Of a stretch of DNA of 64,000 nucleotides, positions 691 through 21,416 are shown piece after piece; position 1 is the first letter of the stretch, and every line of letters starts with the position of its first letter. Both the position numbers and the translations under genes were made by a program. The stretch is from IMG/VR virus record IMGVR_UViG_3300044981_000078, positions 1-64,000 of that record; one strand, 5' to 3'. This stretch comes from a virus. A model generated the notes under the pieces. The model was not told where the DNA came from and did not search any database. It worked only from the letters and a program-made list of their open reading frames with translations.

Positions 691-741
691 TAATCTCCAA
701 GAAGATAATCTGAGGCGATGTCTTGGCACCGCCTCTGATTA
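691..741 (-). promoter_or_regulatory. Kissing-loop SD-sequestering element, copy A
   Basis: GAGGCGGUG-[CCAAGA]-CAUCGCCUC ... AUCU-[UCUUGG]-AGAU, then AUG. Confidence 0.8.
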
Positions 742-777
742 GTATACCACAGATCATGACTCTGTGGGAAAGTTAAA

Positions 778-1720
778 CTACTGAATTGCAGGAACTGAGT
801 CAATCCACCTCATCCTTTGCGTGTTTGCGCCACGGGCAGGCGGAAGAGTTACCGTCTGGTGGAACTTGTATGAACACCATCCACCGATTGTTCCAGTTGG
901 GTCAAAGCTCGACTTCGGAGCGTTGTCCACAACAGAGCAATCGATTGTGCGCCAGTCGCCTTCGTGAAGGTCGGTGTCGCCCGGGACTTCCAACCATACG
1001 CCGATTATTGCGTAGTTACCGAATACATAGGTACGATAAGCAATCTTACCAGTTGACTGGTAGTTTGCGGTTGTGGTCACGAACGGAGTCTGACGCAACA
1101 CAATGTTGGTGCCTGGTAGTTCGATATCCATCTTCTGGTCTGCGCCAGCCATCTTATCGAACTTGTCAATGTTACCTAGCTTCCACAAGTCAACGATTGA
1201 GTTGTTCACTGTCGTTGCATTGAAGATATCACCTAGGACGTTTGGTGAAACTACTCCGGCAAACTTTCCACCACGGTTTGGCAATACGTTCTTTGAAACA
1301 AGCTGCTGCTTCAATTCACGGATTGTTCCCAAATCGATGGTGTACGGAGCAGATAGCAAGCTGCTCTGGTTAACCTGAGTATCAACCGAAGCGGCTCCCG
1401 CTGCGTCGGCTACTGCGCTATACAACTCAGAGATACTCTGTCCTGCCTGATATGCAAGTTCGATAGCGCTGTTTCCAACGACATCGTCCAATGCTGAAGC
1501 AATAACAAAGCTGCTGAAGTTGCTGTAGTTGTTCCACTCACCGACCTGAGCAGGAGAACTGATCTGGCCGACGAATTCCGGTGATCCTACGATACCGTCT
1601 CCAACCTGGGTTGTATCTCCAGTTAGAGTGTTGTACTGAAAGAACTGACGGTTGATACCGGCATTAAGAGGCTGAACCTTTCTCTCTGCCGCTACCAAGA
1701 ACGCGTCTGTTTCTCCCTTG
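778..1720 (-). CDS. Major capsid protein, exon 2
   Basis: Follows the scaffold gene; frame open from ...KGETDAFLVAAERK; joins exon 1 in frame. Confidence 0.8.
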
Positions 1721-2478
1721 CCTTATGTTAACTAACAGTTCTTTTTCCTGTTAGAGCGGACTATCACATCCCGCCGTCAGCGGGTTTTCTCGTTTAGTCT
1801 CTCACGCTGCTTTCGCTTGCGCCTTGTTCTCATCTCAGAGTTCAAGTCCATTAGAGAAAATTCTCACTGTTTCCAGTGACCCCATATAGTCAATGATTTT
1901 TTGTAGCTCTTCAAGATTTGCGTCAGATTTAATCCTATTAGCTCGGTGTGATATAAAGACTAAATTACCAGAGTATTTTTTCAAATATGGTAAATTAGGA
2001 TTCTTTCTATCTATAGAAGGACTAAGGTCTTTATTTTTTAAAGTTCCTTTTCCCTTTTTATACTTTATGCCGAGTACAGGACAAAAGTCTGTCAACTCAG
2101 GAAGGTCCTCTAATTCAAGATCACTCTCGTAACCTCTCCTTTTAGACCTCTCATGAATATTCTTCAAAGCTTGAAACTTGATTTGATCGTCAATAGATGA
2201 CAGCATTGAATAGCCGCCGTGCTTTCTGTTCTGATGCCCTTTTCTTCTAGCATCATCAGTAAGAAAACATCCGCAAGACTTAACCTTATTTTGCATAAGA
2301 GATGAAGTTGACACCACTTTTTCTTTACCACAAACGCAATGACAGAGCCAACGTCCTACTACTACATTACCACCTGTGGTTACCTTACTCTCTGCTCTTT
2401 CAATAACTGTAAGTCTTCCGAATTGTCTATTTTTCAAATCTATTATTTTCATTAACTAGCTCCACTATTTAGTGGTCG
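1721..2478 (-). ncRNA. Group I intron in the major capsid gene
   Basis: 5' exon ends in U (CCAACCU); intron ends in G (AUAAGG); R/S elements GAGACUAAACGAG and GAUGUGAUAGUCC; P2 UCACUG-GAAA-CAGUGA; P3 UUUUCUC/GAGAAAA; splicing restores P-N-L-K-G-E. Confidence 0.9.
1835..2452 (-). CDS. Intron-encoded HNH-type homing endonuclease
   Basis: N-terminal FGRLTVI..WLCHCVCG..SCGC; C-terminal CPVLG..SPSIDRK..NLVFISHRANRIKS. Confidence 0.85.
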   Translation of the reverse strand: MKIIDLKNRQFGRLTVIERAESKVTTGGNVVVGRWLCHCVCGKEKVVSTSSLMQNKVKSCGCFLTDDARRKGHQNRKHGGYSMLSSIDDQIKFQALKNIHERSKRRGYESDLELEDLPELTDFCPVLGIKYKKGKGTLKNKDLSPSIDRKNPNLPYLKKYSGNLVFISHRANRIKSDANLEELQKIIDYMGSLETVRIFSNGLEL

Positions 2479-2570
2479 AGGTTGGGAATGAGTTCCTTAT
2501 CAAAAAGAATACTCTGTGCCGTCAATATATTCCCAACGTTTGCTGCTGACGGGTTTGGTGATCCAGCCAT
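2479..2570 (-). CDS. Major capsid protein, exon 1 (MAGSPNPSAANVGNILTAQSILFDKELIPN-L)
   Basis: ATG at 2570 after GAGG; 92 nt; in frame with exon 2 after intron removal. Confidence 0.8.
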
Positions 2571-2614
2571 AGCTGAACCTCGTGTGCTTTATCTCCGCTT
2601 ACGCGGGTTGTCGA

Positions 2615-3883
2615 TTATCGTTGAGCCCTCTGGTTTCTCTCCCGTACGAATTCCTCGATTAGAGGACGCATCTGCGGATCACGCATGTGCTTCTTCATTT
2701 GCTCGGGAGACCATGACTTAACTTCTTCTGACGTGAGCTTCTTAGGCTTAGCTGGACCCGGTCGAGTCGCTGACGACTCACCTGGAACCAAACCGCCGTT
2801 TACCCCCGGTCTTGGGATAGCAGTAGCCGGATTAACCGGTGCTGCGGCCTGTGCCGGAACAGTCGCTACCGGCTGCACTGCCGGTACCGCTGTTGGTGTA
2901 ACTGTCACTGCCGCTACCGGGGTTACCGGAACAACAGGCGCTGTCACCACCGGATTGGCCGGAGGGGTTGGCGCAACCGGCTCTCGTGGTACGGGAGCCA
3001 GCTTGGATTCTATAGCAAGAAAACAAATCTCTAAATTGTCGTATGTCCAAGTCAACTCCGGGTTTTCTACGAAGTAGTCCTTGACCAGTTCGATATTTGC
3101 CTTACAATTGTAAAAATCTTCTTTATGATTATCCAAAAATCGTCGGCTTACTGCGGCTTGACGCGCTGTCTCTGCTGCCTCAGCGTCTAGCTTGTCTTTT
3201 TCGGCCTTCTGAACCTTTCGGATAGCAGCCAACTGTTTTTGAGGATCGTCTGACTTCAAATCCTTCATAGACTCTAATAGCTCCGCATCAGATAGATTCT
3301 GTGGAGATACCGGCTGTTGGTCTTTAAATGAAATTTTTTGCTGCTTAAGACGATGGCCCCAACGAACTGCCTGAGTATGGGCCTCCTTCTGCTTTATAGA
3401 CAGTTCAACCCAAGAGCGAGCCTCAAGGTGAGTCGGCCTACCGATTGGGTTTCCATGTTCGTCCACGGATTGATAATCTTGTACTAGCTTAGCGATGTTT
3501 CCGTATTGATCTCTAGTAGCTGAGATTCCAGCCAACGCTAACTGCTCGTTCTCTACCTTAAGAGCGGCTTCTCTTTCAGCCTCTTTGGCTGCTGCAGCCT
3601 GAGCTTCCGCTTGTACTGCTGCAATCCGCTGTTGCTCTGCTTCGTCAGGAAGTGTTACTACCGGGTCCGGAACAATCTCTGGTTCGGGCTGCACCGCAGA
3701 GTTTGCTTCTATTTGTCTTTGCGCTGCTTCAATATCTGCTAGTGACTGAGATTTAACGACAGTTAAAACAGCATGTCTCATCTCATCTGATCTGCGCATT
3801 TGATCTTTCATTTCCTGCCCAGTCCACTTTAATACTTCAGAGAAACTAAGGGTTTCAGGAGTAAGTCCAGGGGTTACGCTCAT
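2615..3883 (-). CDS. Probable capsid scaffolding protein
   Basis: Lies between portal and capsid; coiled-coil and Pro/Ala-rich linker. Confidence 0.6.
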   Translation of the reverse strand: MSVTPGLTPETLSFSEVLKWTGQEMKDQMRRSDEMRHAVLTVVKSQSLADIEAAQRQIEANSAVQPEPEIVPDPVVTLPDEAEQQRIAAVQAEAQAAAAKEAEREAALKVENEQLALAGISATRDQYGNIAKLVQDYQSVDEHGNPIGRPTHLEARSWVELSIKQKEAHTQAVRWGHRLKQQKISFKDQQPVSPQNLSDAELLESMKDLKSDDPQKQLAAIRKVQKAEKDKLDAEAAETARQAAVSRRFLDNHKEDFYNCKANIELVKDYFVENPELTWTYDNLEICFLAIESKLAPVPREPVAPTPPANPVVTAPVVPVTPVAAVTVTPTAVPAVQPVATVPAQAAAPVNPATAIPRPGVNGGLVPGESSATRPGPAKPKKLTSEEVKSWSPEQMKKHMRDPQMRPLIEEFVRERNQRAQR

Positions 3884-3884
3884 A

Positions 3885-4232
3885 TTATTCCGTCCTTGTG
3901 ACGAGTGGTTTTACGATTCGATTGACTTCAGGTTCCGCTTTTGTATCTTGAGTTTGACTAGCTTCCGCCATAGCGGTTTGCCAATCGATAGACTGAAGAA
4001 CCAAAAGAGAAAATTCGCTTCGATCTCTTGCCTTAGATTGGAGGGCCTTGAGTTTTCGCTCGTAGCCCTCTTCAATCGGGTCTAGCTTAATAACATCCTC
4101 AGTCGCTCTTTTACAGGCCTCCATAAACATCAGTTCGAGTACTGAAAACCCCGGATGATGTCTAAGTCCTGTAAGATTGAGTCGCTGAGTCTCTGTCAGG
4201 GTATCCGACAGTAGAGGCGTTTTATTTGCCAT
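3885..4232 (-). CDS. Hypothetical protein, head module
   Basis: ORF between portal and scaffold; overlaps the upstream endonuclease end. Confidence 0.6.
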   Translation of the reverse strand: MANKTPLLSDTLTETQRLNLTGLRHHPGFSVLELMFMEACKRATEDVIKLDPIEEGYERKLKALQSKARDRSEFSLLVLQSIDWQTAMAEASQTQDTKAEPEVNRIVKPLVTRTE

Positions 4233-4662
4233 TGTACTTCCTTAGATATTCGATTGCACTAGATAGCCTCTTAGTGTCTTCGTGAGCAAAGCCTACAAAA
4301 ACATTACACGAGTGGCATAATAAGCCTCGCGGCTGTCTAGTTTTATGATTGTGGTCAACGCTCGGCTTACTGAGAACAGAAAAACAAATAGCACACTTAC
4401 CTTCCTGATCTTTTAACTTCTGCTCAAACCACTCTTGAGTTACGCCGTAATTTCTCTTTCGTGCATAGGCTGCATACTTCTCTGGATGCTTACGACGATG
4501 ACCCTTAATATACTCATTCTGATATCCCGGGTTATCTCGTTTATATTTATTAACCTTTTCAGGGTTGTCTAGAGCCCACCGCTTCTTTCTTAAAGAAATC
4601 TCGTTTTTATGGGCCTCATGATACTTCTTATTCTTTTCTCGTTCTTGCTCTTTTGTTTTCAT
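4222..4662 (-). CDS. Endonuclease VII-like homing endonuclease
   Basis: CAIC..VDHNH..RGLLCHSCN motif. Confidence 0.85.
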   Translation of the reverse strand: MKTKEQEREKNKKYHEAHKNEISLRKKRWALDNPEKVNKYKRDNPGYQNEYIKGHRRKHPEKYAAYARKRNYGVTQEWFEQKLKDQEGKCAICFSVLSKPSVDHNHKTRQPRGLLCHSCNVFVGFAHEDTKRLSSAIEYLRKYNGK

Positions 4663-4665
4663 ATT

Positions 4666-4713
4666 CTCTCCATTAAGAGTGATCTGGGGCGTGTAATGGC
4701 ACGCCCCTAATCA
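4666..4713 (-). promoter_or_regulatory. Kissing-loop SD-sequestering element, copy B
   Basis: GGGGCGUG-[CCAUUA]-CACGCCCC ... CUCU-[UAAUGG]-AGAG, then AUG. Confidence 0.8.
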
Positions 4714-4743
4714 GTAAACCTCAACGGATCAGGTTGAGGAAAA

Positions 4744-6864: not shown

Positions 6865-6867
6865 ATT

Positions 6868-9126: not shown

Positions 9127-9147
9127 GAATTGATCTCCGACTATTGA

Positions 9148-9771: not shown

Positions 9772-9958
9772 GTATCACCTACGATAGCTCTCGTATTCTC
9801 CGCTCTATTTCTTCATCCGTGGGTTCTTTAATTGAAAACGTCTTCAAACTTGCATAGACTTGAATAAGTTCAACACGACGACGCTTCTCTTCCTCTATTT
9901 GCATCATTAACTTCGCAATAACGCGAAGAAGAGTCTGTTCATCAAACATCAGGAGCCC

Positions 9959-10162
9959 CTATTGTTGGTCGTGATCTCTCTGTGCCGGTGAAAATGCGTG
10001 TCCAGTAATAGCGCCCAACACTGTTGCAGTAAATGCCACGAATGTGGGGTCCATGTGGTGAAACCACTGAAGGACAGCACCTGTGCCAAATACTCCAACA
10101 CACACTGGAAGGTGATAATCTTTTACAGCCGACAACCACTTGTCTACAGTATTAAATGACAT
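9959..10162 (-). CDS. Small two-TM membrane protein (holin-like)
   Basis: Two hydrophobic segments. Confidence 0.4.
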   Translation of the reverse strand: MSFNTVDKWLSAVKDYHLPVCVGVFGTGAVLQWFHHMDPTFVAFTATVLGAITGHAFSPAQRDHDQQ

Positions 10163-10613
10163 CAAATTTCTCCACATACGCATGGGCGTCCAACAAGCAC
10201 TGCAAATTGCGCTTTTCGAAAAACCCTAAACCAGCGTTGTGTCCACTGCACAGAATTCCACGAACTTTTCCCGAGACATGAGAGTGGTCGATTGGCGAAT
10301 ATAAATCAACTGTCGCTTCACAGTGAGAAAAAGCACATTTAAAATTTTGTTCGATAAGCATCGCGTCATGCTGCTCAGTTGTTAAACCGTACTTCCTCTT
10401 AACCCAACTATGTCGTACTCGATCTCGATTTCTTCTATTCCACTCAGAAACCAAACGACGATGACGATCCGGATTCTTTCTAACCCAATTATCTTTAAAT
10501 TTTTGTACTCTATCGGGGTGCGCTTCGGCCCAAGCCTTAGCAGCCGCAACTTTCTTCGCTTTGTTTCTCTTATGATACTCACGATCATAAGCAGCTTTAT
10601 CTTCCTTATTCAT
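10152..10613 (-). CDS. Endonuclease VII-like homing endonuclease
   Basis: KYGLT..CAF..IDHSH..VRGILC..HN motif. Confidence 0.85.
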   Translation of the reverse strand: MNKEDKAAYDREYHKRNKAKKVAAAKAWAEAHPDRVQKFKDNWVRKNPDRHRRLVSEWNRRNRDRVRHSWVKRKYGLTTEQHDAMLIEQNFKCAFSHCEATVDLYSPIDHSHVSGKVRGILCSGHNAGLGFFEKRNLQCLLDAHAYVEKFDVI

Positions 10614-10615
10614 GT

Positions 10616-10665
10616 GTTCTCCTTGATAGAACGATAAGGGGTACGATCAAGGCGTACCCCAAATC
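10616..10665 (-). promoter_or_regulatory. Kissing-loop SD-sequestering element, copy C
   Basis: GGGGUACG-[CCUUGAU]-CGUACCCC ... GUUCU-[AUCAAGG]-AGAAC, then AUG. Confidence 0.8.
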
Positions 10666-10730
10666 TGCGCCCCGAGGATCAATCGGGGAATATTCACCAC
10701 TTCCAAAATTGAAAAATCTTTTTGAGGATA

Positions 10731-11030
10731 TTAAGTAGCCACTGCAGAAAGTCCTGTGGGAGGTAGAATAGGCACCTGAACGTTAGATGCTTCGTTCGAA
10801 TGCACCGATTCGACTCCGCCTGCGCCTACTGCTGTCACAACATAATCATAAACCTGTCCGGCTGCTACTGTTGTATCATCGTAGGTCAGAGCCGTAATCA
10901 AACTAGAATTCAAAGCTGGCGCTTTTTCTCCGCCAACTGATGTGCTACGATAGACGTTATATCCTGTTCCTGCTACCGGAGGAGTTGTTAAATCTACCGA
11001 TGCTACCCAGGTCAAAGTAACTGTATGCAT
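10731..11030 (-). CDS. Fibronectin type III domain protein
   Basis: VTLTW..GYNVYRS..YDD..YDYVVTAV..ES..SNE pattern. Confidence 0.8.
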   Translation of the reverse strand: MHTVTLTWVASVDLTTPPVAGTGYNVYRSTSVGGEKAPALNSSLITALTYDDTTVAAGQVYDYVVTAVGAGGVESVHSNEASNVQVPILPPTGLSAVAT

Positions 11031-11038
11031 TTAGTCTC

Positions 11039-11230
11039 CTAGTGCTTAAAGCTCTTCATCGTTTTCGCGAAGTTTTTCATGTGCTTCATGTGCTCGCTAT
11101 CACTATCCTGAGCGGCCAACTTATCTTCTGGAATAGACTCGCCTTCGGGCACGCCTAGGGCGCGATGCAAACCACCCTTGCGAAGATGGTGCATTGCGCG
11201 ATACAAACTTGTATTATGTCCTTTAGCCAT
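11039..11230 (-). CDS. Small basic phage protein
   Basis: KGGLHRALGVPEGESIP; coupled to neighbours. Confidence 0.55.
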   Translation of the reverse strand: MAKGHNTSLYRAMHHLRKGGLHRALGVPEGESIPEDKLAAQDSDSEHMKHMKNFAKTMKSFKH

Positions 11231-11231
11231 A

Positions 11232-11483: not shown

Positions 11484-11610
11484 TTGAAACTCCTAAACTA
11501 AACCGTCTTTCAAATTCTTTCTTAATTACATCATCAGAAAAATCTTCTATCCGTTTTCGCCTTTGGTTACTCATCTGAATAGACGTAGAGGCCCACCTAC
11601 AATTTTCAGC
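11465..11610 (-). pseudogene. C-terminal remnant of an HNH homing endonuclease
   Basis: Frame reads ENCRWASTSIQMSNQRR..., like the NCRWAT..Q.NN.R end of HNH endonucleases; no start codon. Confidence 0.55.
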
Positions 11611-11648
11611 CCCGCCAACAGGTTATAAGGCTGCTGGTTTGAATAAAC

Positions 11649-12245
11649 CTACTTAGTAAATGACTTCATACCCTTTGTATCATTCAGAGCACAACATCCG
11701 TCTCTATAGACTCTAAATGCACCCTGCTTACAAAAGCCGTCTCTACCGTGACTATCTGGGGACTTTGCGTCGGCCATATATTCACAGCGCTTACAACTAA
11801 ATCCCTCTCTTGGGGTTTCACCGTAGTCGGCCAAATCTTTACTTATCTTATCGGCAAACTCTAGTTCCGGATCACCGGCGTCTAAATCTTCCCAGTGGCG
11901 ACAGCTACCGTGATCTCCGCTTATTTTTCCTTCAACAGCTAAACAAGCTCCACCTGGTTCGTACTTATTACAAGTTTGACAAAGATAGTTACCTTCGTAA
12001 TCAAAACTTCTAGAGTCACCAGACCATGGGTCCGCATACTGAAACATCTTTGCAAATGTGTCTCTTAGATGTGACTCCTGAACCTCGTCATACTCCCCGG
12101 TATCTTTAAATAGCCCGTCTTCACCTTTTGTCGGGTTCACAATCTTTCGATCTTGAGCAGGACGATTATTCAAAATAACAAACGGAGAAGACTTTGGCTT
12201 ACTCTGCTTAACCAACTTATAAGAAGCGTTAGAGTATTCGTTCAT
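11649..12245 (-). CDS. Protein with two HiPIP-like four-Cys repeats
   Basis: CQTC..C..VEGKI..GSCRHW and CKRC..C..GCCAL. Confidence 0.5.
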   Translation of the reverse strand: MNEYSNASYKLVKQSKPKSSPFVILNNRPAQDRKIVNPTKGEDGLFKDTGEYDEVQESHLRDTFAKMFQYADPWSGDSRSFDYEGNYLCQTCNKYEPGGACLAVEGKISGDHGSCRHWEDLDAGDPELEFADKISKDLADYGETPREGFSCKRCEYMADAKSPDSHGRDGFCKQGAFRVYRDGCCALNDTKGMKSFTK

Positions 12246-12247
12246 GG

Positions 12248-12424
12248 TTAAGACTCTTTACGAGCTTTTCTGACTTCCGAATAAGATGGCTTACCATCTT
12301 TCACATGCTCTGGGAGATTGTGTTTTCCCTTAGTTGCGGCGTCAAACTCAGCTAAGTTCTTTTTACCAAACTCTTCTGGGTGCGCGTGAGCCCAACCTTG
12401 TTGCGCCTTCGATACAAATGGCAA
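12248..12424 (-). CDS. Small phage protein (MPFVSKAQQGWAH...)
   Basis: TTG start behind GAGG; 58 aa; below the ORF-track cutoff. Confidence 0.55.
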   Translation of the reverse strand: MPFVSKAQQGWAHAHPEEFGKKNLAEFDAATKGKHNLPEHVKDGKPSYSEVRKARKES

Positions 12425-12433
12425 GTTAACCTC

Positions 12434-12775
12434 TTACAACTTCCAATGAAATATTGAGCTTAAATCGTGGTGAACAATGGTTCCGATACCGACAATTATC
12501 GAATGATACCACTGTCGTTTCTTAGCGTCATCTTGCTCGGTCTCAATAGTTCCTACTCGGGCTTCCATACTTCCTTTAAATCCTGAAAATTCTTGATGCA
12601 AATCTCCAACGGCTTTCAACATCTCTGCTCTTGCATCACTAATAGCTTTCATCACTTCGAGTGTGTCGCCGTTCATAAGGTCCCTATAAAATTTGCCAAG
12701 GGCTTTTACATTGGCTGCTGTGGATTTCGCACGGTTTTCTGGAGGAGGGGCGCTAACATAGATGCGCCCCGTCAC
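12434..12775 (-). CDS. Hypothetical coiled-coil protein with hydrophobic C-terminus
   Basis: ORF in operon; start uncertain. Confidence 0.45.
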   Translation of the reverse strand: MTGRIYVSAPPPENRAKSTAANVKALGKFYRDLMNGDTLEVMKAISDARAEMLKAVGDLHQEFSGFKGSMEARVGTIETEQDDAKKRQWYHSIIVGIGTIVHHDLSSIFHWKL

Positions 12776-12807
12776 AATCCAGGAAATTAATTAACTAATT
12801 CAGGTCA

Positions 12808-13500
12808 CTAATCCTGAACTATCTTGAACTCAGTCAAACTAGCACTGTTTCCGGTTGATCCTGCGCTGAATGTAACTCCAGCTACGAACCCAAATCCAGG
12901 ATTTGACAAAGCATTTCCAAACGATGTTGCTGCCGGAGTACCTGTTAACAATCCCTGAACTGCGGTAAAGTAAGCAGGAACCTGAGTTACTGCTGCGCCA
13001 CCGCCTGTCTTCTGTACGATAGCATATGTCTGATAACCGGATAGCGTTCCAGAGTTAGGATCAAAATACATATCACCCATGATGGTAAATGCAACGCCAT
13101 CACCAGCCACTGTAGCGCTAGAAGCAACGTTACATAGAAGGGCGGTATAAACTGGGCTTACATAGATCGAACCTGTTGAAGCGTTAGGTGTAACAATCTG
13201 AACTACTGGAGTTATTGTTGGAGTTCCAGTTGTGGTTGACGCATAACCGGATGCGTACAAACGGAATCTTGCACCCTGCAACTTAAACGCACTTGCATCA
13301 AATGCCAACATACCAATCGAACTGGTTGCTGATGGCACCTGACCTAGCTGTGATGACTGCTGCGGAGTATTAACCCCCGGCTGTCCGACGTTCCACAATG
13401 ACTGTGGCGGATTACTAAAGAAATACTGAAGAACTCCGGAAGTTCCCCCGACTGTGCTGGGGAATGCTTCACTGATTTGATACTGAAGTACTGTTGCCAT
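12808..13500 (-). CDS. Probable virion structural protein
   Basis: Gly/Ser/Thr-rich beta composition; GAGG SD. Confidence 0.5.
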   Translation of the reverse strand: MATVLQYQISEAFPSTVGGTSGVLQYFFSNPPQSLWNVGQPGVNTPQQSSQLGQVPSATSSIGMLAFDASAFKLQGARFRLYASGYASTTTGTPTITPVVQIVTPNASTGSIYVSPVYTALLCNVASSATVAGDGVAFTIMGDMYFDPNSGTLSGYQTYAIVQKTGGGAAVTQVPAYFTAVQGLLTGTPAATSFGNALSNPGFGFVAGVTFSAGSTGNSASLTEFKIVQD

Positions 13501-13606
13501 GACTTGCCTCTATGAACGCAAACGCTACGCTTCGATTTTGTTCTAACACGCAAACGCTGCGCTTTATTAGGAATAGTCGTACTATCCCTATCATCGAATG
13601 ACACTT

Positions 13607-14041
13607 TCAATTTTCATTCGTATGTTTCCGCAAAAGCGGAAATCTCTTTCTAACAATTAAATCTTCTTTATTTTCTCGTCTCTTAATCCAATTGCAATTA
13701 GCACAGAGAATCTGAAATAAACCTAAGTTGTCTAATACGTATTTCAAAAAAGTAGTCTGAGAAAAATTCTTACGATTTTTACTACCACCACCGTTTATGT
13801 GGTCTATTTGAAGGGCTCTTCTGTCTCCGAATCCGCAGTGGGAGCACCTAGCCCCTAATTTATTAAAAACTCGTTCTCTTAGAACAGCAGTGCGTTCTTT
13901 AGACCTATCATAAACGCCGTTGCAAATATTGCGATTACGACTACACGCATTACAATATCCGTATCCGGCTCGTAGAGTAGAGGGAGTAGAGTTTTCTATT
14001 GTAAGAACAACTAAACACGTACTGCACTTTCCGTTTGCCAT
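13607..14041 (-). CDS. HNH homing endonuclease
   Basis: CSHCG..LQIDHINGGG..FQILCANCN. Confidence 0.85.
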   Translation of the reverse strand: MANGKCSTCLVVLTIENSTPSTLRAGYGYCNACSRNRNICNGVYDRSKERTAVLRERVFNKLGARCSHCGFGDRRALQIDHINGGGSKNRKNFSQTTFLKYVLDNLGLFQILCANCNWIKRRENKEDLIVRKRFPLLRKHTNEN

Positions 14042-14047
14042 TTTATT

Positions 14048-14094
14048 TCTCCTAGTAAGACGGTGAAGGGCATGTACTAGGCATGCCCAACACC
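14048..14094 (-). promoter_or_regulatory. Kissing-loop SD-sequestering element, copy D
   Basis: GGGCAUG-[CCUAGUA]-CAUGCCC ... UCU-[UACUAGG]-AGA, then AUG. Confidence 0.8.
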
Positions 14095-14118
14095 TAACTC
14101 TCGGGAGCTACCCGAAAG

Positions 14119-14931
14119 CTAAACTTTTTCTAGCGACGTTCCACACTCTATGCAAAATTTCGCTGATGATTTATTTTTCTTGCCGCATGTATCGCACTTG
14201 ACCTTAGTTTGAACGGTCTTCGCGACCCTAATATCTGACCCCGCCTTCTTGCCGACCAGGTGTAAGACCAAAACCTCTGATGAATCTGTTTCGAAACCCG
14301 AAACTCGACAAAACTGCTGATTGCTAATGGACCCCGGAACTGTAATCCCCGCATCATTCTCCTGCTCTGCTGACTGCAAGTTAGCTGCGCATAGAGATAC
14401 ATTCTGAGCCGACAACATAAAATTACTATTATTTAAAGATGCTGTTCCCGAAGATCGGGTCAATGACCCCAACGATCCCGAAGCGCTCGGATTACCGTAC
14501 GTACTATAATATATGGGATACCTAGGATAGCAACCACCAGGATAATGATAATGGTAAGTATGGTGCTCAACAACCTTGGGCGCTTCATATACTTTTTCGC
14601 GCTTGAACTCAATACGAACGAGGCCATCTTCTGCGGTGATGCCTCGGTGTTCTTCGATACGCACTGTACGTTCGATAAACTTGAAACGGTTACCACGGTT
14701 CAGGTCCTCAACAAATCTCTCGACCTCTACATCCCGCCCTGGTTTGATAACGAGCCAGCCTGCGGCGTCTTTTCCGTCGATTGAGATACGGGCCTGCATA
14801 CGAACAGAATCTAAATTCTTCAAAAGAACTGTATATTCTGAGCCGAATGGCAGTTCAACGCGATCTGAGGACTCGCGAAGTATTTTACCACCTACCTTAA
14901 TTGCGCAAACAAAGTTCTTCTTATACGTCAT
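14119..14931 (-). CDS. Hypothetical protein with C-terminal zinc ribbon
   Basis: CDTCG..AKFCIECG. Confidence 0.7.
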   Translation of the reverse strand: MTYKKNFVCAIKVGGKILRESSDRVELPFGSEYTVLLKNLDSVRMQARISIDGKDAAGWLVIKPGRDVEVERFVEDLNRGNRFKFIERTVRIEEHRGITAEDGLVRIEFKREKVYEAPKVVEHHTYHYHYPGGCYPRYPIYYSTYGNPSASGSLGSLTRSSGTASLNNSNFMLSAQNVSLCAANLQSAEQENDAGITVPGSISNQQFCRVSGFETDSSEVLVLHLVGKKAGSDIRVAKTVQTKVKCDTCGKKNKSSAKFCIECGTSLEKV

Positions 14932-15017
14932 TTATTCACCTTTTAACGGTTGACACACTAACAACCCAGTATTTTAAAGTGTGTTGATTTTCCTATTCGC
15001 TATATCCGAATAGAGAA

Positions 15018-15278
15018 TTACTTAATGTGCTTTAAAGCGTCCCCGGCGGCCTGATGAGGATTACTCATATCAGCGAATTCACGCTTCTTAGGGTTCTGGC
15101 TCAAAGCCTCATCTTCCTTAGATGTGGACTTGTGACCTACATGGGCGGGAGGTGCCATCTTCTTCATCATACCGCCGAGTGCCTCGTCTTCATGAGACGT
15201 TGATCCCGGGCTAGAGTGCGCCATGGGTGCCTTCTTCTTAATTTTACCGCCAAGTGCTTCACAATCGCTCATTGCCAT
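15018..15278 (-). CDS. Small protein with internal EALGG..KK.AP repeats
   Basis: AGGAG SD; internal repeats. Confidence 0.55.
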   Translation of the reverse strand: MAMSDCEALGGKIKKKAPMAHSSPGSTSHEDEALGGMMKKMAPPAHVGHKSTSKEDEALSQNPKKREFADMSNPHQAAGDALKHIK

Positions 15279-15297
15279 AGAAATTCTCCTAATTTTA

Positions 15298-15678
15298 CTA
15301 CACGTAATTTATTGAAACGATTACATTACTAGATGGAGGAGTGGTCCCCGCAGTCCCGCCGGTCGTAACACATGCCGCTGATAGAGCAGTTGCAAATGTC
15401 TTACCCTGCGCCGCTCCAACGAAATAAGTTTCGGTTACCAATGCACTGCCCGGGACAAAAATAACAGAATCCGGAGCAGTTGTTCCAAGGGTTACTGAGC
15501 CGCTGGCAAGATTCCAAAGCTTAACATAACTAGCCGAAGCGTTAAGTGTATTATCTATAGTTACAGAATATACTTTAGCTGAACTTGCCTTGACAGCATC
15601 AATAGATGCACCCATTGCAGAATCTTGAAAAATAACTTCATTAGATGGACTAGACACATTCACTTGAGTTATCGCCAT
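15298..15678 (-). CDS. Probable virion/decoration protein
   Basis: Small beta-rich protein in structural cluster. Confidence 0.5.
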   Translation of the reverse strand: MAITQVNVSSPSNEVIFQDSAMGASIDAVKASSAKVYSVTIDNTLNASASYVKLWNLASGSVTLGTTAPDSVIFVPGSALVTETYFVGAAQGKTFATALSAACVTTGGTAGTTPPSSNVIVSINYV

Positions 15679-15689
15679 AAATTTTTCCC

Positions 15690-16076
15690 TTAGCCACCGA
15701 CTATAAATTCAACCGGGGTGTTACCAACATTTGCCTGCAATGACAGCGCCGTAATCCCTGAACCTGGAACCGGATTCGCTTCCGTAAACATAATCATTGA
15801 TCCGGGCTGCAAAACTACAACAACGTTAGACGCTCCGCCCGACGGGGTCCATGTAACGGTCACGACATTGGCCGCGTGTAGATTTTTAAGATATAAAAAC
15901 TGAACCGGAGATATCGGAAGACTAATAGTGGTGGCTCCAATACCTACAGGCAAGGTCTGTGCCTGAGAAAAAACGACCCCAGGCATAACTAAAGACAGTT
16001 GCTTCTGCAGTGAAACAACCCCCGTAGTACCGTCCGATATGATAATTTGTCCCTGTAGGGTAACAGTTATAGCCAC
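15690..16076 (-). CDS. Probable virion/decoration protein
   Basis: Small beta-rich protein in structural cluster. Confidence 0.5.
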   Translation of the reverse strand: MAITVTLQGQIIISDGTTGVVSLQKQLSLVMPGVVFSQAQTLPVGIGATTISLPISPVQFLYLKNLHAANVVTVTWTPSGGASNVVVVLQPGSMIMFTEANPVPGSGITALSLQANVGNTPVEFIVGG

Positions 16077-16080
16077 TGAA

Positions 16081-16650
16081 TTATCCTAGCGGAATTTCCG
16101 CCCAAATAAGTGAAGGTGCAAGATTGGCAGTCAATGTTCCCGATGACACAACACAAACTCCCGAGTTAGGGGTGATGACAACAGACCCAGCAATATCATC
16201 CTTAAAAACTACCGCATCACCGGCAGCCAAATCCAAATAGGCTCCGGTACTATAATATCCCGGAACAGTTGGCGCTCCAACAAGAGTACCGGCGGTAAAC
16301 GGAGTAGCCTTTGCAGTTCCGGCATTTCCGATCAATGCATTTTGAGGAGTATTTCCGGGGGTCGTAGCAGTAGGAGTTTGTCCACCTACAAATTGAAATC
16401 CAAAGCCCGCTCCGGTTGTACCGGCGGTAAAGGTTGTTATTGGAAGAGTCATACCCAACAAAACCAAATTTACACCGGAGGTCGCTGGGTTAAACAATGC
16501 AAAATTTCCGGTAGCTGTAGCAGACGCAGCGGCCACTGCCGCTGACGCATAAGTTACACCAAATACAATTCCCGCAGACACTAAATTGAAATATCGTGGA
16601 AAGAAATCTGAAGCGAGAGAAGACTGACGAATAGCAAGTCCAAGATTCAT
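16081..16650 (-). CDS. Probable virion structural protein
   Basis: Ala/Gly/Thr-rich; start uncertain. Confidence 0.45.
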   Translation of the reverse strand: MNLGLAIRQSSLASDFFPRYFNLVSAGIVFGVTYASAAVAAASATATGNFALFNPATSGVNLVLLGMTLPITTFTAGTTGAGFGFQFVGGQTPTATTPGNTPQNALIGNAGTAKATPFTAGTLVGAPTVPGYYSTGAYLDLAAGDAVVFKDDIAGSVVITPNSGVCVVSSGTLTANLAPSLIWAEIPLG

Positions 16651-16665
16651 ATCATCCCCAAAACA

Positions 16666-16699
16666 CAAAAAGCGGGGCCAACCGTTAGGCTAGCCCCGC
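16666..16699 (-). terminator. Rho-independent terminator
   Basis: GCGGGGCUAGCC-UAAC-GGUUGGCCCCGC followed by UUUUU. Confidence 0.7.
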
Positions 16700-16705
16700 A
16701 GAAAA

Positions 16706-17170
16706 TTACTTAGTTCTCCATGCTCCATTAGTAAAGCAATAGAAAATTGTTGGCCCGGTACCCCCGCCATTCTGCGCGGCCACAGACAATGCTGTGTTTA
16801 CAGCCGCTCCGTTAATCGTTTCACCTGTCGCAGGAAAAACGTTCATAGCGTTTAATGCAGCGTCATTCAAAACGTCAATCTGCATACCACGAATAGACGG
16901 AGGAAGAGTAATAGAATCACCCGCTGTACCTACAGTCGTAACACGTATCATAGGAGTAGTTACAGGAACTCCATTCGCTTGACCGCCGCCAGCGTGAGCA
17001 GTGACCCCATCCTGAGCCATCGCCTGACCGTACAACTGATTATTTGCTGTCTGTCCTGCGTTAACTACCTCACCGGGTCCTAACACCTGACTAACATCGA
17101 TATTTTCTCCGCGATCCATGTACTGCGCTCTTGCAATAGGAAGTCCGGCTGATGTTGAAGGAATTGCCAT
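16706..17170 (-). CDS. Probable virion structural protein
   Basis: GGAG SD before MAIPST; beta-rich. Confidence 0.5.
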   Translation of the reverse strand: MAIPSTSAGLPIARAQYMDRGENIDVSQVLGPGEVVNAGQTANNQLYGQAMAQDGVTAHAGGGQANGVPVTTPMIRVTTVGTAGDSITLPPSIRGMQIDVLNDAALNAMNVFPATGETINGAAVNTALSVAAQNGGGTGPTIFYCFTNGAWRTK

Positions 17171-17213
17171 AGATAATTCTCCGTGATACTTAAAATCCAG
17201 GCAATGCCTGGAC

Positions 17214-17243
17214 AAAATAAAAGCCGCCCAAAATGAGCGGCTT
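17214..17243 (-). terminator. Terminator closing the tRNA array
   Basis: AAGCCGCUC-AUUUU-GGGCGGCUU followed by a U tract. Confidence 0.65.
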
Positions 17244-17265
17244 GGCCCGAACTACATTTTAATAT

Positions 17266-17339
17266 TGGTCGGGGATGGAAGAATCGGACTTCCGTCTCAC
17301 CCATCCGAAGGGCGTAGATTGCCATTATCAGAATCCCCG
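17266..17339 (-). tRNA. tRNA-Pro(CGG)
   Basis: Cloverleaf, C1-G72, A73, encoded CCA; T-loop UCCGAUU. Confidence 0.75.
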
Positions 17340-17442
17340 TGACACCGCCACTTTCCGCTCGCTAATGACCCCTTGAGCCTTCGGACGATGGGGGACCGTT
17401 GTTCTCGGGAACGATTGCCGCCAATTATTAAAATTGGTAAAC

Positions 17443-17530
17443 TGGTCGGGGTACGGTGACTCGAACACCGAAGGTCTCTCGACACCGGTTTCCAAAACCG
17501 GACTGCTTCCATTTACAGAGCTATACCCCG
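17443..17530 (-). tRNA. tRNA-Pro(TGG), long variable arm
   Basis: CCGGU-UUUGGAA-ACCGG; CCA. Confidence 0.85.
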
Positions 17531-17536
17531 TTAAAC

Positions 17537-17908
17537 TTATTGTCGTGCTGACAAAAGAGTTGTATGATCCATACGCTCACCACCAGACTTTTGTTGCTGC
17601 GGCTTCGTTGGCTCATGCGATTGATCTCCGCCATATTCGTCCAATAGACTCGGCGGAAGAATCAAAATTTTTTTACCGTCTGTGCTGTGTCCTGCGTAAA
17701 CCCCGGGCTCTACTCCGGCTGGTGCGGCCACAAAAATCTGTGTGCCATCGGGAACGACTAGTGGTACTAACGCTCCGGTCGCCGGGTCTGCTACCATAAC
17801 ATGCGGTATTACTACAGATCGTACTCCGACTTTCTTTCCGACAAAGAAACAACTGACAGCGACAGTCAATCCGAGAACAAAAGCCAACGTTGAAGTAATT
17901 ACGCTCAT
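17537..17908 (-). CDS. Hypothetical membrane-anchored protein
   Basis: GGAG SD; N-terminal TM helix. Confidence 0.5.
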   Translation of the reverse strand: MSVITSTLAFVLGLTVAVSCFFVGKKVGVRSVVIPHVMVADPATGALVPLVVPDGTQIFVAAPAGVEPGVYAGHSTDGKKILILPPSLLDEYGGDQSHEPTKPQQQKSGGERMDHTTLLSARQ

Positions 17909-17988
17909 AAATCTCCCGGGACAGAGCACAATTATCGTCGCTCAAGTTCGCTGCGGTGAACTTAATCCTCTGCTCGACGTTACAAACT

Positions 17989-18063
17989 TGGATGCGCGAA
18001 CTGGATTCGAACCAGTATAAACAGGGTCAGGGCCTGTTGGACTGCCAATTGTCCGATCACGCA
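17989..18063 (-). tRNA. tRNA-Gln(CTG)
   Basis: ACAGG-CCCUGAC-CCUGU (C33); CCA. Confidence 0.85.
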
Positions 18064-18071
18064 ATTGAAAC

Positions 18072-18148
18072 TGGTTGGCCTCGAAGGATTCAAACCTTCA
18101 GTCGCATCGGTTCAAAGCCGAGCATGTTATCAATTACACCAGAGGCCA
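18072..18148 (-). tRNA. tRNA-Gln(TTG)
   Basis: Loop CUUUGAA; A19-U56. Confidence 0.85.
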
Positions 18149-18154
18149 ATAAAT

Positions 18155-18228
18155 TGGAGAGCCGGGTGAGAGTCTAACTCACCAAAGCGGGTTTGCAATC
18201 CGCCGCCTAGACGATTGGCTTCCGACTC
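18155..18228 (-). tRNA. tRNA-Cys(GCA)
   Basis: Loop UUGCAAA; U73; U19-A56. Confidence 0.85.
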
Positions 18229-18280
18229 AATAAATTGACGCAGGGACCAAGAGTTAACATTGAAATCCCTGCATAGAAAA

Positions 18281-18365
18281 TGGAGGAAGATAACGTATCG
18301 AAACGTAAGCCTCTCGGCTTGGCTGGTGTTCAAGGCCAGTTGAGCGCCCTTGCTCCCTATCTTCC
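18281..18365 (-). tRNA. tRNA-Ser(TGA), atypical acceptor/T arms
   Basis: Loop CUUGAAC; long variable arm; possible 8/4 fold. Confidence 0.7.
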
Positions 18366-18369
18366 ATAA

Positions 18370-18459
18370 TGGCGGAGGATACAGGATTTGAACCTGTACA
18401 AGCTTACGCTTGGCTTCCGCTTAGCAAGCGGACACAATACCGGGTTCTGTCAACCCTCC
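18370..18459 (-). tRNA. tRNA-Ser(GCT)
   Basis: UCCGC-UUGCUAA-GCGGA; long variable arm; G73. Confidence 0.9.
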
Positions 18460-18860
18460 AAATACTTTATAGCACTTTGCATGAATGCTAGATTATCTTC
18501 AAACGATCCTATCCCTCGGTTACAAGAACTACAAAGCAAGCCACGCACTTTTTTAGTTGAGTGACAATGATCTATAACCAGCTTTTTATCTCGTTGGCAA
18601 ATTGCACATAAGCCGTGCTGCCGTTCCTGCATCTGTTTATATTGTTCTTCCGTTATCTTATATTTTCGAGTGTAGTCTTTTACGTAATTATAAGGGCCTT
18701 GCCGTGCTTTAATGGCCTCTTTATTATTCTGGTATCTTACAGCTTCGTATTTTGACCTACAATCCTTACACTGCGGGTGTCTTCTATCTCTTCCCTTCGT
18801 GTGATAATCAAAACGCTCAATGTCTTTCTCAATGCCGCACTTAGAACACAATTTCATCAT
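18450..18860 (-). CDS. Endonuclease VII-like homing endonuclease
   Basis: CSKC..CKDC N-terminus; CAIC..IDHCH..VRGLLCSSCN. Confidence 0.85.
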   Translation of the reverse strand: MMKLCSKCGIEKDIERFDYHTKGRDRRHPQCKDCRSKYEAVRYQNNKEAIKARQGPYNYVKDYTRKYKITEEQYKQMQERQHGLCAICQRDKKLVIDHCHSTKKVRGLLCSSCNRGIGSFEDNLAFMQSAIKYLEG

Positions 18861-18862
18861 AA

Positions 18863-18910
18863 CACTCTCCCTTAAAGAGTGCCGGGAGGTGTTAAGGGCA
18901 CCTCCCGACT
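18863..18910 (-). promoter_or_regulatory. Kissing-loop SD-sequestering element, copy E
   Basis: GGGAGGUG-[CCCUUAA]-CACCUCCC ... CACUCU-[UUAAGGG]-AGAGUG, then AUG. Confidence 0.8.
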
Positions 18911-18927
18911 AATTGTACGTACAAACC

Positions 18928-19134
18928 TTATTGGTTCAATGCCTGTTTAGCTTTTTGAACCATATCTCCCTTGGCCTTCAGTTCATCACCAAGCGAAGGG
19001 GCCTTGCGTGCTTCTCGCGCCGCGCTATATGTCGGTTTCTGTGGCTGCGGCATACTCGGACTAGGAAACTTCTGTTCTGCCTCTCCGAGTACCTTCTTAG
19101 CGTTTGCTAAGGTTGTTTCAATATCTTGCGGCAT
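18928..19134 (-). CDS. Hypothetical protein
   Basis: 68-aa ORF directly after the RNase P RNA. Confidence 0.45.
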   Translation of the reverse strand: MPQDIETTLANAKKVLGEAEQKFPSPSMPQPQKPTYSAAREARKAPSLGDELKAKGDMVQKAKQALNQ

Positions 19135-19144
19135 AATTTTCGAT

Positions 19145-19444
19145 GGTGAACTTGTAAGCAGGATTCTGTTCCGTGCGTTCTTATAGAAGCACGGTGACTG
19201 CCATTCGTCTTTGCTGCCTACCCGACCTTCATCACGCTAAACAAACGTTCCGGTCCTATTTGGCATTGCTCTGGTGTGGATTATCTTCGCTCCAATGATG
19301 TAAGCGTTCGATGACTTTCTAGAATGTCACCGTTCAATTACATACGAAGGCTTACCCGTACGCTTTCGCGCCCCGCAACTTCCACGGCACCATGTTTAGA
19401 TGAGTCCTGACTTTCCTCTGTTTCCAGCGGCAGTCTAGTTCACC
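19145..19444 (-). ncRNA. rnpB: RNase P RNA (bacterial type)
   Basis: P1 GGUGAAC/GUUCACC; CR-I GAGGAAAGUCAGGAC; CR-V AACAGAAUCCUGCUUA; P2 GACUGCC/GGCAGUC; GAGCAA..CCAAAUAGG (P15 region). Confidence 0.88.
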
Positions 19445-19448
19445 AATA

Positions 19449-19525
19449 TGGACTCGCTGGCGGGACTCGAACCCGCATACATCAGTTTAGGAAACTAAGC
19501 CCCGATCCTTTCGAGGAACAGCGAG
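19449..19525 (-). tRNA. tRNA-Arg(CCT)
   Basis: Loop UUCCUAA; A20; CCA. Confidence 0.88.
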
Positions 19526-19609
19526 AAAATTTTTATCCCTTCAGGTGCGCGACCGGAGTCCGGTGCGTTTTAGTTTCGAGAGTTTCACTCTACCCCTTCG
19601 GGATAAAAC

Positions 19610-19684
19610 TGGGGGGCCGTAACGGAGTCCAACCGTTCTCTTGGAGTTAGAAGCTCCAGGTCCTATGCGATGAACGAACAGCCC
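19610..19684 (-). tRNA. tRNA-Arg(TCT)
   Basis: UGGAG-CUUCUAA-CUCCA; C19-G56. Confidence 0.85.
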
Positions 19685-19690
19685 AAAACT

Positions 19691-19765
19691 TGGCGAGAGA
19701 TGATGGATTCGAACCACCAAAAGCGCGTTTGGAGTGCGCCGGTTTGCCGTTAAGCCTAATCTCTC
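19691..19765 (-). tRNA. tRNA-Trp(CCA)
   Basis: Loop CUCCAAA; G73. Confidence 0.88.
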
Positions 19766-19772
19766 ATAAAAC

Positions 19773-19848
19773 TGGAGCGGAACATGGGATTCGAACCCAC
19801 TCGTTCAGTTTGGAAAACTGACATGCTAGCCGTTAACATCAGTCCCGC
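19773..19848 (-). tRNA. tRNA-Gly(TCC)
   Basis: Loop UUUCCAA; U73. Confidence 0.9.
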
Positions 19849-20060
19849 TTAAAATCCATAAATCCACAACTCATGATCCAGAATCGGACGAAACACATGC
19901 TTATCGCCAGGTGTCCACAGATACAATCCTAACTCAGTGGACATGATAATAAAAGCAGATTCTGAATGCACGTACATATAAATTTGTGGCACCCACCTCA
20001 CGGTCCCGGTGCCCCGGACTAGGTATTGAGGGCAACCCTCGTGCGCCTAGACGCTGTGAT

Positions 20061-20135
20061 TGGAGCGATGTGCGGGAAATCGAACCCGCGCCTATGACTT
20101 GGCAAGCCATCGGACTTCCATTATCCGAACATCGC
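20061..20135 (-). tRNA. tRNA-Gly(GCC)
   Basis: Loop UUGCCAA; U73. Confidence 0.88.
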
Positions 20136-20528
20136 CTAAAATTCAAAGTCTTTAGCAAAACGTAATCCGGTTTTTATGCTCTTAGAAGGCTCTATACGTA
20201 ATGACATTGTGCCTTTAACACACTTCTCTATAGGAACAAAATATGTCTTTCCATTGTCGGGGCAATAAACTCCGAAAGCGTCTATATCGTCTTTCGAATA
20301 ATAATTCATACCTGCTGCTGTCACACTATAAGTTCTAAATTTTACCACACCTTTTCTAATTCGTGCAGTCTTACATTGAACACGTATGAATTTTCCCTTC
20401 TCATCATCTAATAAAAGGTCATATCGAGAAGCACCGTTAAAAGGTATAAAAATTTTCTTACCCCTCAGCAGTAGCGCCGCTAAAATCATTCCTTCTGTAA
20501 CAGAACCTACTCCACTCGTATCTTTCAT
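20136..20528 (-). CDS. PD-(D/E)XK homing endonuclease (I-Ssp6803I-like)
   Basis: RYDLLLD..RVQCKT..Y..DIDAFGVYCP; likely start ATG 20528. Confidence 0.85.
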   Translation of the reverse strand: MKDTSGVGSVTEGMILAALLLRGKKIFIPFNGASRYDLLLDDEKGKFIRVQCKTARIRKGVVKFRTYSVTAAGMNYYSKDDIDAFGVYCPDNGKTYFVPIEKCVKGTMSLRIEPSKSIKTGLRFAKDFEF

Positions 20529-20532
20529 TTGT

Positions 20533-20574
20533 CTCTCCACTATAGAGTCGGAGGGGTGATAGTGGCACCCCTCC
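20533..20574 (-). promoter_or_regulatory. Kissing-loop SD-sequestering element, copy F
   Basis: GGAGGGGUG-[CCACUAU]-CACCCCUCC ... CUCU-[AUAGUGG]-AGAG, then AUG. Confidence 0.8.
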
Positions 20575-20595
20575 CAGTTGTACGTACAAAATCAA

Positions 20596-21072: not shown

Positions 21073-21124
21073 CTTAGTCCCCTCAGAACTAAAACTAACA
21101 TGTGGTACAGTACTACCTCAAATG

Positions 21125-21201: not shown

Positions 21202-21208
21202 TTAAAAT

Positions 21209-21402: not shown

Positions 21403-21416
21403 TGTACGTACAAAAA

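Follow-up and report, generated by a model that had tools for sequence, protein, structure and literature searches.

Ribosome-binding-site-sequestering RNA structures limit the translation of homing endonucleases in T-even phages (PMC2988022, PMC3014915). The leaders described there, those of I-TevI, I-TevII, I-TevIII, segB and Aeh1 mobE, are single local hairpins specific to their genes, and a late promoter inside the structure lets late transcripts escape repression. Here we describe a structured leader in front of six free-standing endonuclease genes on the minus strand of a phage genome, found in the opening 64 kb of a virus record of 101,668 bp (IMG/VR record IMGVR_UViG_3300044981_000078); this stretch of 64,000 nucleotides is called the window, and the whole record (G000) was searched. 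The leader consists of a stable hairpin, H1, and a small hairpin, H2, with complementary loops that take in the Shine-Dalgarno (SD) sequence. Like the T-even leaders, it is a cis RNA structure over the SD of homing-endonuclease genes on long polycistronic phage transcripts, and the presumed purpose in both is to limit or delay nuclease translation (PMC2988022, PMC3014915). It has no sequence relationship to the T-even hairpins and differs from them in being one portable H1 and H2 architecture that serves about 100 cassettes and four nuclease folds, with no embedded promoter visible. RNA structure over a homing-endonuclease SD is known; what is new is a conserved, portable loop-to-SD architecture that recurs across nuclease folds and moves with the cassette. 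We propose, with a probability of roughly 0.68, that it is a cis-acting translational lock in the mRNA 5′ leader of free-standing homing-endonuclease genes, travelling with the cassette.

Direct reading of all six sites located the leaders at the minus-strand coordinates given by the first-pass annotation, an earlier reading of the window (Table 1). The order of elements is the same in all six: H1, a short connector, (C)UCU, loop L2, AGA(G), and an ATG 4–9 nt further on. H1 is a GC-rich hairpin of 7–11 contiguous pairs, extended in copy 1 from 9 bp by another 4 bp past an A.A mismatch, and its loop, L1, has 6–7 nt and starts with CC. L2, which ends in GG, is the exact reverse complement of L1 in six of six leaders and is at the same time the loop of the small UCU/AGA hairpin H2; all six loop pairs differ from each other and all are fully complementary, as first claimed. 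The first-pass placement of a GGAG SD across L2 and the 3′ side of the H2 stem was also correct. The first two G residues of GGAG pair with the CC that opens L1, and AGA(G) with (C)UCU; covariation backs both pairings. Minimum-free-energy structures calculated with RNAfold contain H1 in all six leaders and H2 in five. Upstream of H1 lies a further hairpin, H0, which typically ends 7–12 nt before H1 and is enriched over shuffled sequences. It is heterogeneous, with a TGATCC-like loop in several copies, and in others a 12-bp palindrome, TTGTA(CG/GC)TACAA, precedes H1 instead.

Relatives of the phage were found through TerL in IMG/VR, and they contain many more copies of the leader, with new loop pairs, all of them complementary. 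None of the unrelated IMG/VR phages with EndoVII homologs (L010–L028) has the leader; its distribution therefore tracks the phage clade rather than the nuclease family. A pattern blind to complementarity, GTGCC-N5-CAC...TCT-N5-GGAGA, was scanned against IMG/VR, and 63 of the 108 distinct matches had all five free loop positions complementary where 0.11 was expected, with a bimodal distribution. The same pattern in bacterial and archaeal genomes gave no complementary case among the 121 matches listed, which followed a plain binomial distribution. Altogether 98 distinct copies were collected, with 50 different L1 sequences. In an 82-row alignment (A3) annotated with three helices, L1.L2 being entered as a pseudoknot, 95.7% of the cells were paired compared with 72.4% in shuffles, and the covariation score was 0.587 compared with 0.141 in shuffles, a value that none of 500 shuffles reached; slid-partner controls scored 0.07–0.11. 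The L1.L2 pairs show up to four pair types per column. H2 played no part in the selection of copies, and its fourth pair (alignment columns 35–49) is CG in 39 rows, UA in 18 and AU in 11. The claim that stems and loops covary, made from six copies, thus holds for all three helices. Single non-Watson-Crick combinations at interior positions of H1 comprise 30 of the type G.U or U.G and one of the type A.C or C.A; this 30:1 ratio implies that the structure is an RNA on the sense strand, since a DNA palindrome would lack such asymmetry.

No named motif had been recognised at first pass, and none emerged from Rfam 15 at any of the six sites, either at gathering thresholds over the whole window or at E ≤ 1 over positions 1–21500. 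A literature search found no paper describing the leader. A catalogue from 2023 that lists more than 10,000 candidate structured RNAs of viruses (PMC10690425) discusses no such leader in its text, and an unnamed entry in its supplement is possible. Judged by sequence comparison, the leader belongs to an RNA family not yet catalogued; it is common among related phages, which form a clade of uncultured soil phages of about 100 kb.

Exactly six copies are present in the whole genome, as determined by a descriptor scan and by a covariance-model search. With a model built from 82 copies, the six score 18–54 bits and the next matches have E values of about 0.1. Two weak matches to the model were rejected: one at window positions 23014–23056, which lies inside an open reading frame (ORF), and one at about 65515–65558 of the full record, which is an ordinary SD. 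Both kinds of scan bear out the earlier observation that the leader is missing before other genes, including the plus-strand EndoVII gene (34074–34271), and it is likewise missing at an EndoVII-like gene at 91591–91821 on the minus strand.

The families of the downstream genes are those first assigned, with four Endonuclease_7 proteins, one HNH protein (recognised by PHROG only) and one PDDEXK_5 protein (Table 1). The sharing of one RNA by unrelated nuclease families extends beyond the EndoVII-like, HNH and PD-(D/E)XK genes of this phage: in close relatives the genes behind the leaders are EndoVII-like, belong to several HNH families, or encode in one case a GIY-YIG/NUMOD3 nuclease. A tabulation of the genes downstream of IMG/VR copies, which the first-pass annotation had suggested as a check, revealed the same nuclease association. 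Among the 64 distinct ORFs downstream of the pattern-derived copies, Pfam assigns 27 to Endonuclease_7, 10 to GIY-YIG and 7 to HNH-type families, and PHROGs assigns more. The gene behind copy 1 is frameshifted, as reported at first pass, at an A11 run near 606–620 on the minus strand; the run could mark a real break, an assembly error or a transcriptional slippage site.

Table 1. Parts of the six minus-strand leaders and the genes behind them (window coordinates)
Feature	Positions	Strand	Elements or product	Start codon
Leader 1, core	735-693	-	H1 arms GAGGCGGUG/CAUCGCCUC; L1/L2 CCAAGA/UCUUGG	ATG 688
Leader 1, parts	693..767	-	H0 767-747; H1 735-712; L1 726-721; H2 706-693; L2 702-697	
Gene behind leader 1	240..688	-	EndoVII-like; Endonuclease_7 domain in frame of ORF 240-491	ATG 688
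Leader 2, core	4707-4666	-	H1 arms GGGGCGUG/CACGCCCC; L1/L2 CCAUUA/UAAUGG	ATG 4662
Leader 2, parts	4666..4739	-	H0 4739-4719; H1 4707-4686; L1 4699-4694; H2 4679-4666; L2 4675-4670	
Gene behind leader 2	4222..4662	-	EndoVII-like nuclease, 146 aa	
Leader 3, core	10660-10616	-	H1 arms GGGGUACG/CGUACCCC; L1/L2 CCUUGAU/AUCAAGG	ATG 10613
Leader 3, parts	10616..10688	-	H0 10688-10670; H1 10660-10638; L1 10652-10646; H2 10632-10616; L2 10627-10621	
Gene behind leader 3	10152..10613	-	EndoVII-like nuclease, 153 aa	
Leader 4, core	14088-14048	-	H1 arms GGGCAUG/CAUGCCC; L1/L2 CCUAGUA/UACUAGG	ATG 14041
Leader 4, parts	14048..14124	-	H0 within 14124-14092; H1 14088-14068; L1 14081-14075; H2 14060-14048; L2 14057-14051	
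Gene behind leader 4	13607..14041	-	HNH nuclease, 144 aa; phrog_2255 match, no Pfam hit	
Leader 5, core	18909-18864	-	H1 of 11 bp; L1/L2 CCCUUAA/UUAAGGG	ATG 18860
Leader 5, parts	18864..18924	-	palindrome TTGTACGTACAA ~18913-18924; H1 18909-18881; L1 18898-18892; H2 18880-18864; L2 18875-18869	
Gene behind leader 5	18450..18860	-	EndoVII-like nuclease, 136 aa; inside tRNA array	
Leader 6, core	20574-20533	-	H1 arms GGAGGGGUG/CACCCCUCC; L1/L2 CCACUAU/AUAGUGG	ATG 20528
Leader 6, parts	20533..20589	-	palindrome TTGTACGTACAA ~20578-20589; H1 20574-20550; L1 20565-20559; H2 20547-20533; L2 20543-20537	
Gene behind leader 6	20136..20528	-	PD-(D/E)XK nuclease, PDDEXK_5, 130 aa	

The statement that every free-standing nuclease on the minus arm carries the leader is right for these six and wrong for a seventh. 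The latter (1835–2452, minus strand; phrog_3322/374) lies between a 422-aa gene and the major head gene, and instead of a two-hairpin leader it has only a plain hairpin over its SD, CCACU-AAAU-AGUGG, at 2453–2480. In the relative G003 the genes flanking this nuclease are only about 165 nt apart. A group I intron was considered for the 1835–2452 nuclease and rejected, as relatives have the two flanking ORFs as separate genes and Rfam gave no intron hit. The arms of the plain hairpin are nearly equal to L1 and L2 of copy 6, and its sequence suggests a collapsed form of the leader. In the tRNA array there is also a third TTGTACGTACAA palindrome, at about 21402–21413, and directly behind it a short ORF that matches HNH weakly (E 0.006); this region (21329–21436, minus strand) resembles a nuclease cassette that has decayed and lacks H1 and H2.

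That the leader might be part of a mobile cassette, as had been suggested, is borne out by its gain and loss together with the nuclease gene between near-identical phages. The contig L002 has a TerL identical to that of the window and flanks that are 97–99% identical, and whole cassettes differ between the two at at least four sites. One junction is exact: where a TAA and the next ATG stand one base apart in the window, L002 has a 534-bp insert, made up of the palindrome TTGTAGCTACAA, H1, H2 and an EndoVII ORF, the end of which overlaps the start of the next gene. The H0-type upstream element lies within the inserted unit. The cassette after the capsid gene is missing in G003, where there is just a spacer of 75 nt bearing another, GC-rich hairpin, and the stretch of the gene behind copy 3 (10152–10613) has other sequence in other soil samples and a different cassette in L002. 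In contigs from other soils the cassette regions are replaced, and homology breaks at the SD of copy 2; the DNA sequencing runs were used solely for this comparison of cassette replacement. The segments 10018–11067, 11497–11650 and 12259–12810, which contain cassettes or small ORFs, are replaced or skipped in other soil contigs between flanks that are 95–100% identical, and one replacement sequence has another H1-like hairpin, GGGGUG-CCUUCAA-CACCCC.

The leader of copy 2 is conserved in L001 and L002, yet the nuclease behind it is only 33% identical to that of L001. Where the copy-2 leader differs from L001 and L002, the differences are paired: A-U to G-C in H0, U/A to G/C in L1/L2 and C-G to A-U in H2. 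The cassettes bear the marks of homing cassettes, namely genes of homing-nuclease families (Endonuclease_7, HNH, PDDEXK_5, and GIY-YIG with NUMOD3) and presence/absence polymorphism between conserved genes. As far as can be read from these comparisons, the leader is swapped among cassettes encoding at least four unrelated nuclease folds. In T4-type phages, promoter-early stem-loop (PeSL) units, which combine a promoter with a stem-loop, are thought to mediate recombination. The leader resembles them as a short stem-loop module that travels with variable phage ORFs; unlike PeSL units, it is a leader that pairs with the SD, and no consistent promoter signal accompanies it.

Median folding energies are −14.7 kcal/mol for H1, −0.8 for H2 and −7.3 for L1.L2, the last with an interquartile range of −7.7 to −6.6. 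L1.L2 is therefore the main masking interaction, and from its narrow spread the modelled L1.L2 energy looks tuned rather than maximised. After its CC, L1 is 76% A/U. In every copy L2 ends at the SD, and in 72 of 98 copies the start codon comes 7–8 nt after L2; position and strength of the SD are thus ordinary, and it is access alone that is restricted. Counted from the last nucleotide of L1 to the first of L2, the spacing stays within 15–20 nt (mode 17–18) while the contiguous part of H1 varies from 6 to 17 bp, longer H1 stems going with shorter connectors (r = −0.67). Permitting one internal defect (often A.A or UU/UU) brings H1 to 11–13 bp in most copies, and the gap between the extended H1 and H2 is then 0–3 nt in 81 of 98 copies and 0–2 nt in all six studied here.

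These distances bear on the three-dimensional form of the leader. ColE1 RNA I/RNA II and TAR-TAR* are intermolecular kissing complexes in which three helices stack. The leader is like them in having stem-closed loops of 6–7 nt that are complementary throughout, the complementarity stopping exactly at the stem boundaries; it is unlike them in that both loops are on one strand and the stems are 0–3 nt apart in most copies, such that a coaxial complex in cis needs partial melting. In a kissing complex about 20 stacked bp span about 50 Å, which by A-form geometry requires a connector of about 9 nt or more. Because H1 adjoins H2 in most copies, the two loops lie at opposite ends of a stacked rod, and pairing in cis probably requires that the base of H1, H2 or both be opened. 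On this geometry a static three-helix kissing complex in cis appears sterically unlikely, and of the term kissing-loop used at first pass the full complementarity of the loops stands, whereas the static cis kissing geometry is doubtful, the connector falling short of this length. Crossing of the L1.L2 groove with zero nucleotides is known only from kissing complexes. If H2 and the base of H1 open, the 15–20 nt between L1 and L2 fit an H1 core of 8–10 bp plus a crossing loop of 7–10 nt, and an H-type pseudoknot with such a core, a crossing strand of 7–10 nt and an L1.L2 helix of 6–7 bp would be feasible. Either such a pseudoknot or a pair of alternating folds suits the geometry better than a static kissing complex of three helices. 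Two exchanging folds, each hiding part of the SD, are favoured because selection maintains both H2 and L1.L2. The leader of T4 gene 32 contains an H-type pseudoknot in which hairpin-loop nucleotides likewise pair with a downstream single strand near a phage start site (PMC3014915). That pseudoknot lies upstream of the SD and nucleates the binding of a protein repressor; here, in contrast, the proposed pseudoknot helix itself takes in SD bases, no loop nucleotide is left unpaired, and nothing points to a protein partner.

In the mechanism that we propose, the very stable H1 would display L1, in which CC is followed by an A/U-rich part, as an exact antisense of the 6–7 nt that end in the first GG of GGAG. 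The remainder of the SD (AGA or AGAG) would pair with the upstream UCU or CUCU to give the weak hairpin H2, and the SD would thus be masked twice, by H2 and by the L1.L2 pairing with its pseudoknot topology. From such double masking, poor 30S binding and therefore a low nuclease level would be expected even in heavily transcribed structural and tRNA operons. The locked form would most likely be an H-type pseudoknot of the H1 core and L1.L2 that exchanges with the two-hairpin form; its exact three-dimensional shape is inferred, and so is the silencing or timing suggested at first pass. By analogy with the T-even hairpins (PMC2988022, PMC3014915), the lock most likely keeps the nucleases scarce.

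Several observations weigh against a translational lock of this kind. H2 alone is too weak for repression, and in most copies an L1.L2 helix in cis could not exist while H1 and H2 are both complete. Nor is there a visible equivalent of the T-even route to relief, in which a late promoter lies within the structure. One genuine leader in IMG/VR (L048, 2364–3862; loops CCUGACA/UGUCAGG) stands before a D5_N/DUF5906 primase-helicase gene, the sole clear non-nuclease exception among the 64 downstream ORFs. As regards promoters, TANNNT upstream of H1 was not enriched at a fixed distance, being present in 22 of 98 copies compared with 7–24 of 98 (mostly 18–24) in background windows; the T4-late-like sequence TATAAATA occurred between L1 and the ORF in only 4 of 98 copies, where the phage's own promoter consensus may differ; and a simple sigma-70 scan, whose consensus may not be that of this phage, called a site at two of the six leaders. 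By these three scans there is no consistent promoter signal at the leaders, including one of the embedded T-even type. The only metatranscriptome (X13) yielded a few short contigs on structural genes and is uninformative on leader 5′ ends or translation.

The best-surviving alternative, which we regard as possible and on balance unlikely, is that the leader is a two-state switch or timer, in which a rod of extended H1 and H2 with a weakly masked, permissive SD alternates with the closed pseudoknot and some input times nuclease production. The input could be the transcript 5′ end, upstream translation, temperature, or an RNA-binding protein or helicase. The juxtaposition of H1 and H2 in 81 of 98 copies agrees with a switch, as do the L1-L2 distance, kept within 15–20 nt regardless of H1 length, the covariation of both H2 and L1.L2 together with the narrowly tuned L1.L2 energy, and the rough energies of the two states, which come out similar by nearest-neighbour values. 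There are no conserved unpaired nucleotides hinting at a ligand or protein site, however, and no promoter-like signal at a fixed place, and extension of H1 past an internal defect is only modestly enriched (36 of 98 copies compared with 18 of 98 in shuffles). We hold as equally tentative the idea of a portable bistable lock, in which the rod and the SD-capturing pseudoknot would be mutually exclusive folds of similar energy carried by at least four nuclease folds.

It is improbable that the leader serves mainly in mRNA processing, stability or insulation, with H0 and H1, as hairpins that resemble terminators or block nucleases, making the inserted cassette independent of its host operon, and with SD pairing a secondary matter. 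Such a role would suit the great stability of H1, the two of six H1 hairpins that a simple scan rates as terminator-like, the enrichment of H0 over shuffles with its compensatory change, and the GC-rich hairpin of G003 at the same post-capsid intergenic position in the absence of a cassette. Most H1 hairpins nevertheless have no U tract, and the exact L1.L2 complementarity, the covariation of H2 and the fixed spacing to the start codon would be left unexplained. Pairing in trans, with leader rods kissing head to tail through their 7-nt loops or L1 docking onto a separate RNA "key", is very improbable. A stacked H1-H2 rod does put L1 and L2 at opposite ends, and stem-closed complementary 7-nt loops are the classic intermolecular kissing form seen in ColE1 RNA I/RNA II, but no other hairpin in the genome consistently displays any of the six L1 or L2 sequences, which disposes of candidate key hairpins elsewhere in it; nuclease mRNAs are expected to be rare, and the tightly constrained L1-L2 distance argues for pairing in cis. 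That the inverted repeats are DNA-level binding, cleavage or recombination sites for a nuclease or repressor, as in the I-TevI operator, is the least credible explanation, for while the elements sit at cassette boundaries and the 12-bp palindrome precedes some copies, the 30:1 excess of G.U over A.C in H1 shows selection on one RNA strand, one architecture serves four unrelated nuclease folds, and its relation to SD and start codon is fixed.

The phage that carries these leaders is uncultured, has a genome of about 102 kb and comes from soil, and near-identical DNA is present in several soil metagenomes. No close relatives were detected in INPHARED by megablast or TerL tblastn; the best TerL match, at 25% identity, was the acidobacterial Tunturiibacter phage Tunturi_3. 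The minus strand encodes the structural module (portal, large terminase and major head protein), an array of 32 tRNA genes (17266–25332) and an RNase P RNA. The latter is a full-length match to the bacterial class A RNase P RNA at 19139–19446 (minus strand), inside the tRNA array; its score, 102.6 bits, exceeds the gathering score of 100. At 63692–63764 on the plus strand ARAGORN called a tRNA-like gene whose anticodon loop (aacc) is irregular. The major head gene (window 778–1698), which is 91–95% identical in relatives and uninterrupted in the window, contains in each of three relatives an insert that breaks it up, of about 212, 247 and 1030 nt respectively (G001 56867–58031, G002 81230–82356 and L004 11520–13467), and these inserts may be introns. 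The ends of the record repeat each other, the same sequence occurring at 44–78 and 101577–101611 (window 1 to about 100 compared with about 101570–101668 of the record), which indicates, at the level of sequence, that the record is terminally redundant or that its assembly is circularly permuted.

As selfish genes, homing endonucleases have to spare the phage that carries them, and the translational control described earlier amounts to a handful of gene-specific T-even hairpins. The leader, at about 50–75 nt, is a small, defined and readily mutated model for how mobile nuclease genes stay quiet. It adds a new RNA family to the catalogues and a marker of free-standing homing-endonuclease genes in metagenomes, and its natural set of about 50 orthogonal loop pairs could serve as RNA parts. 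If the portable bistable lock were true, cassettes would be able to settle in the most expressed operons of the phage, those of the capsid, the portal and terminase and the tRNA array, at little cost, and the freely variable loop pair would give each cassette a private "address".

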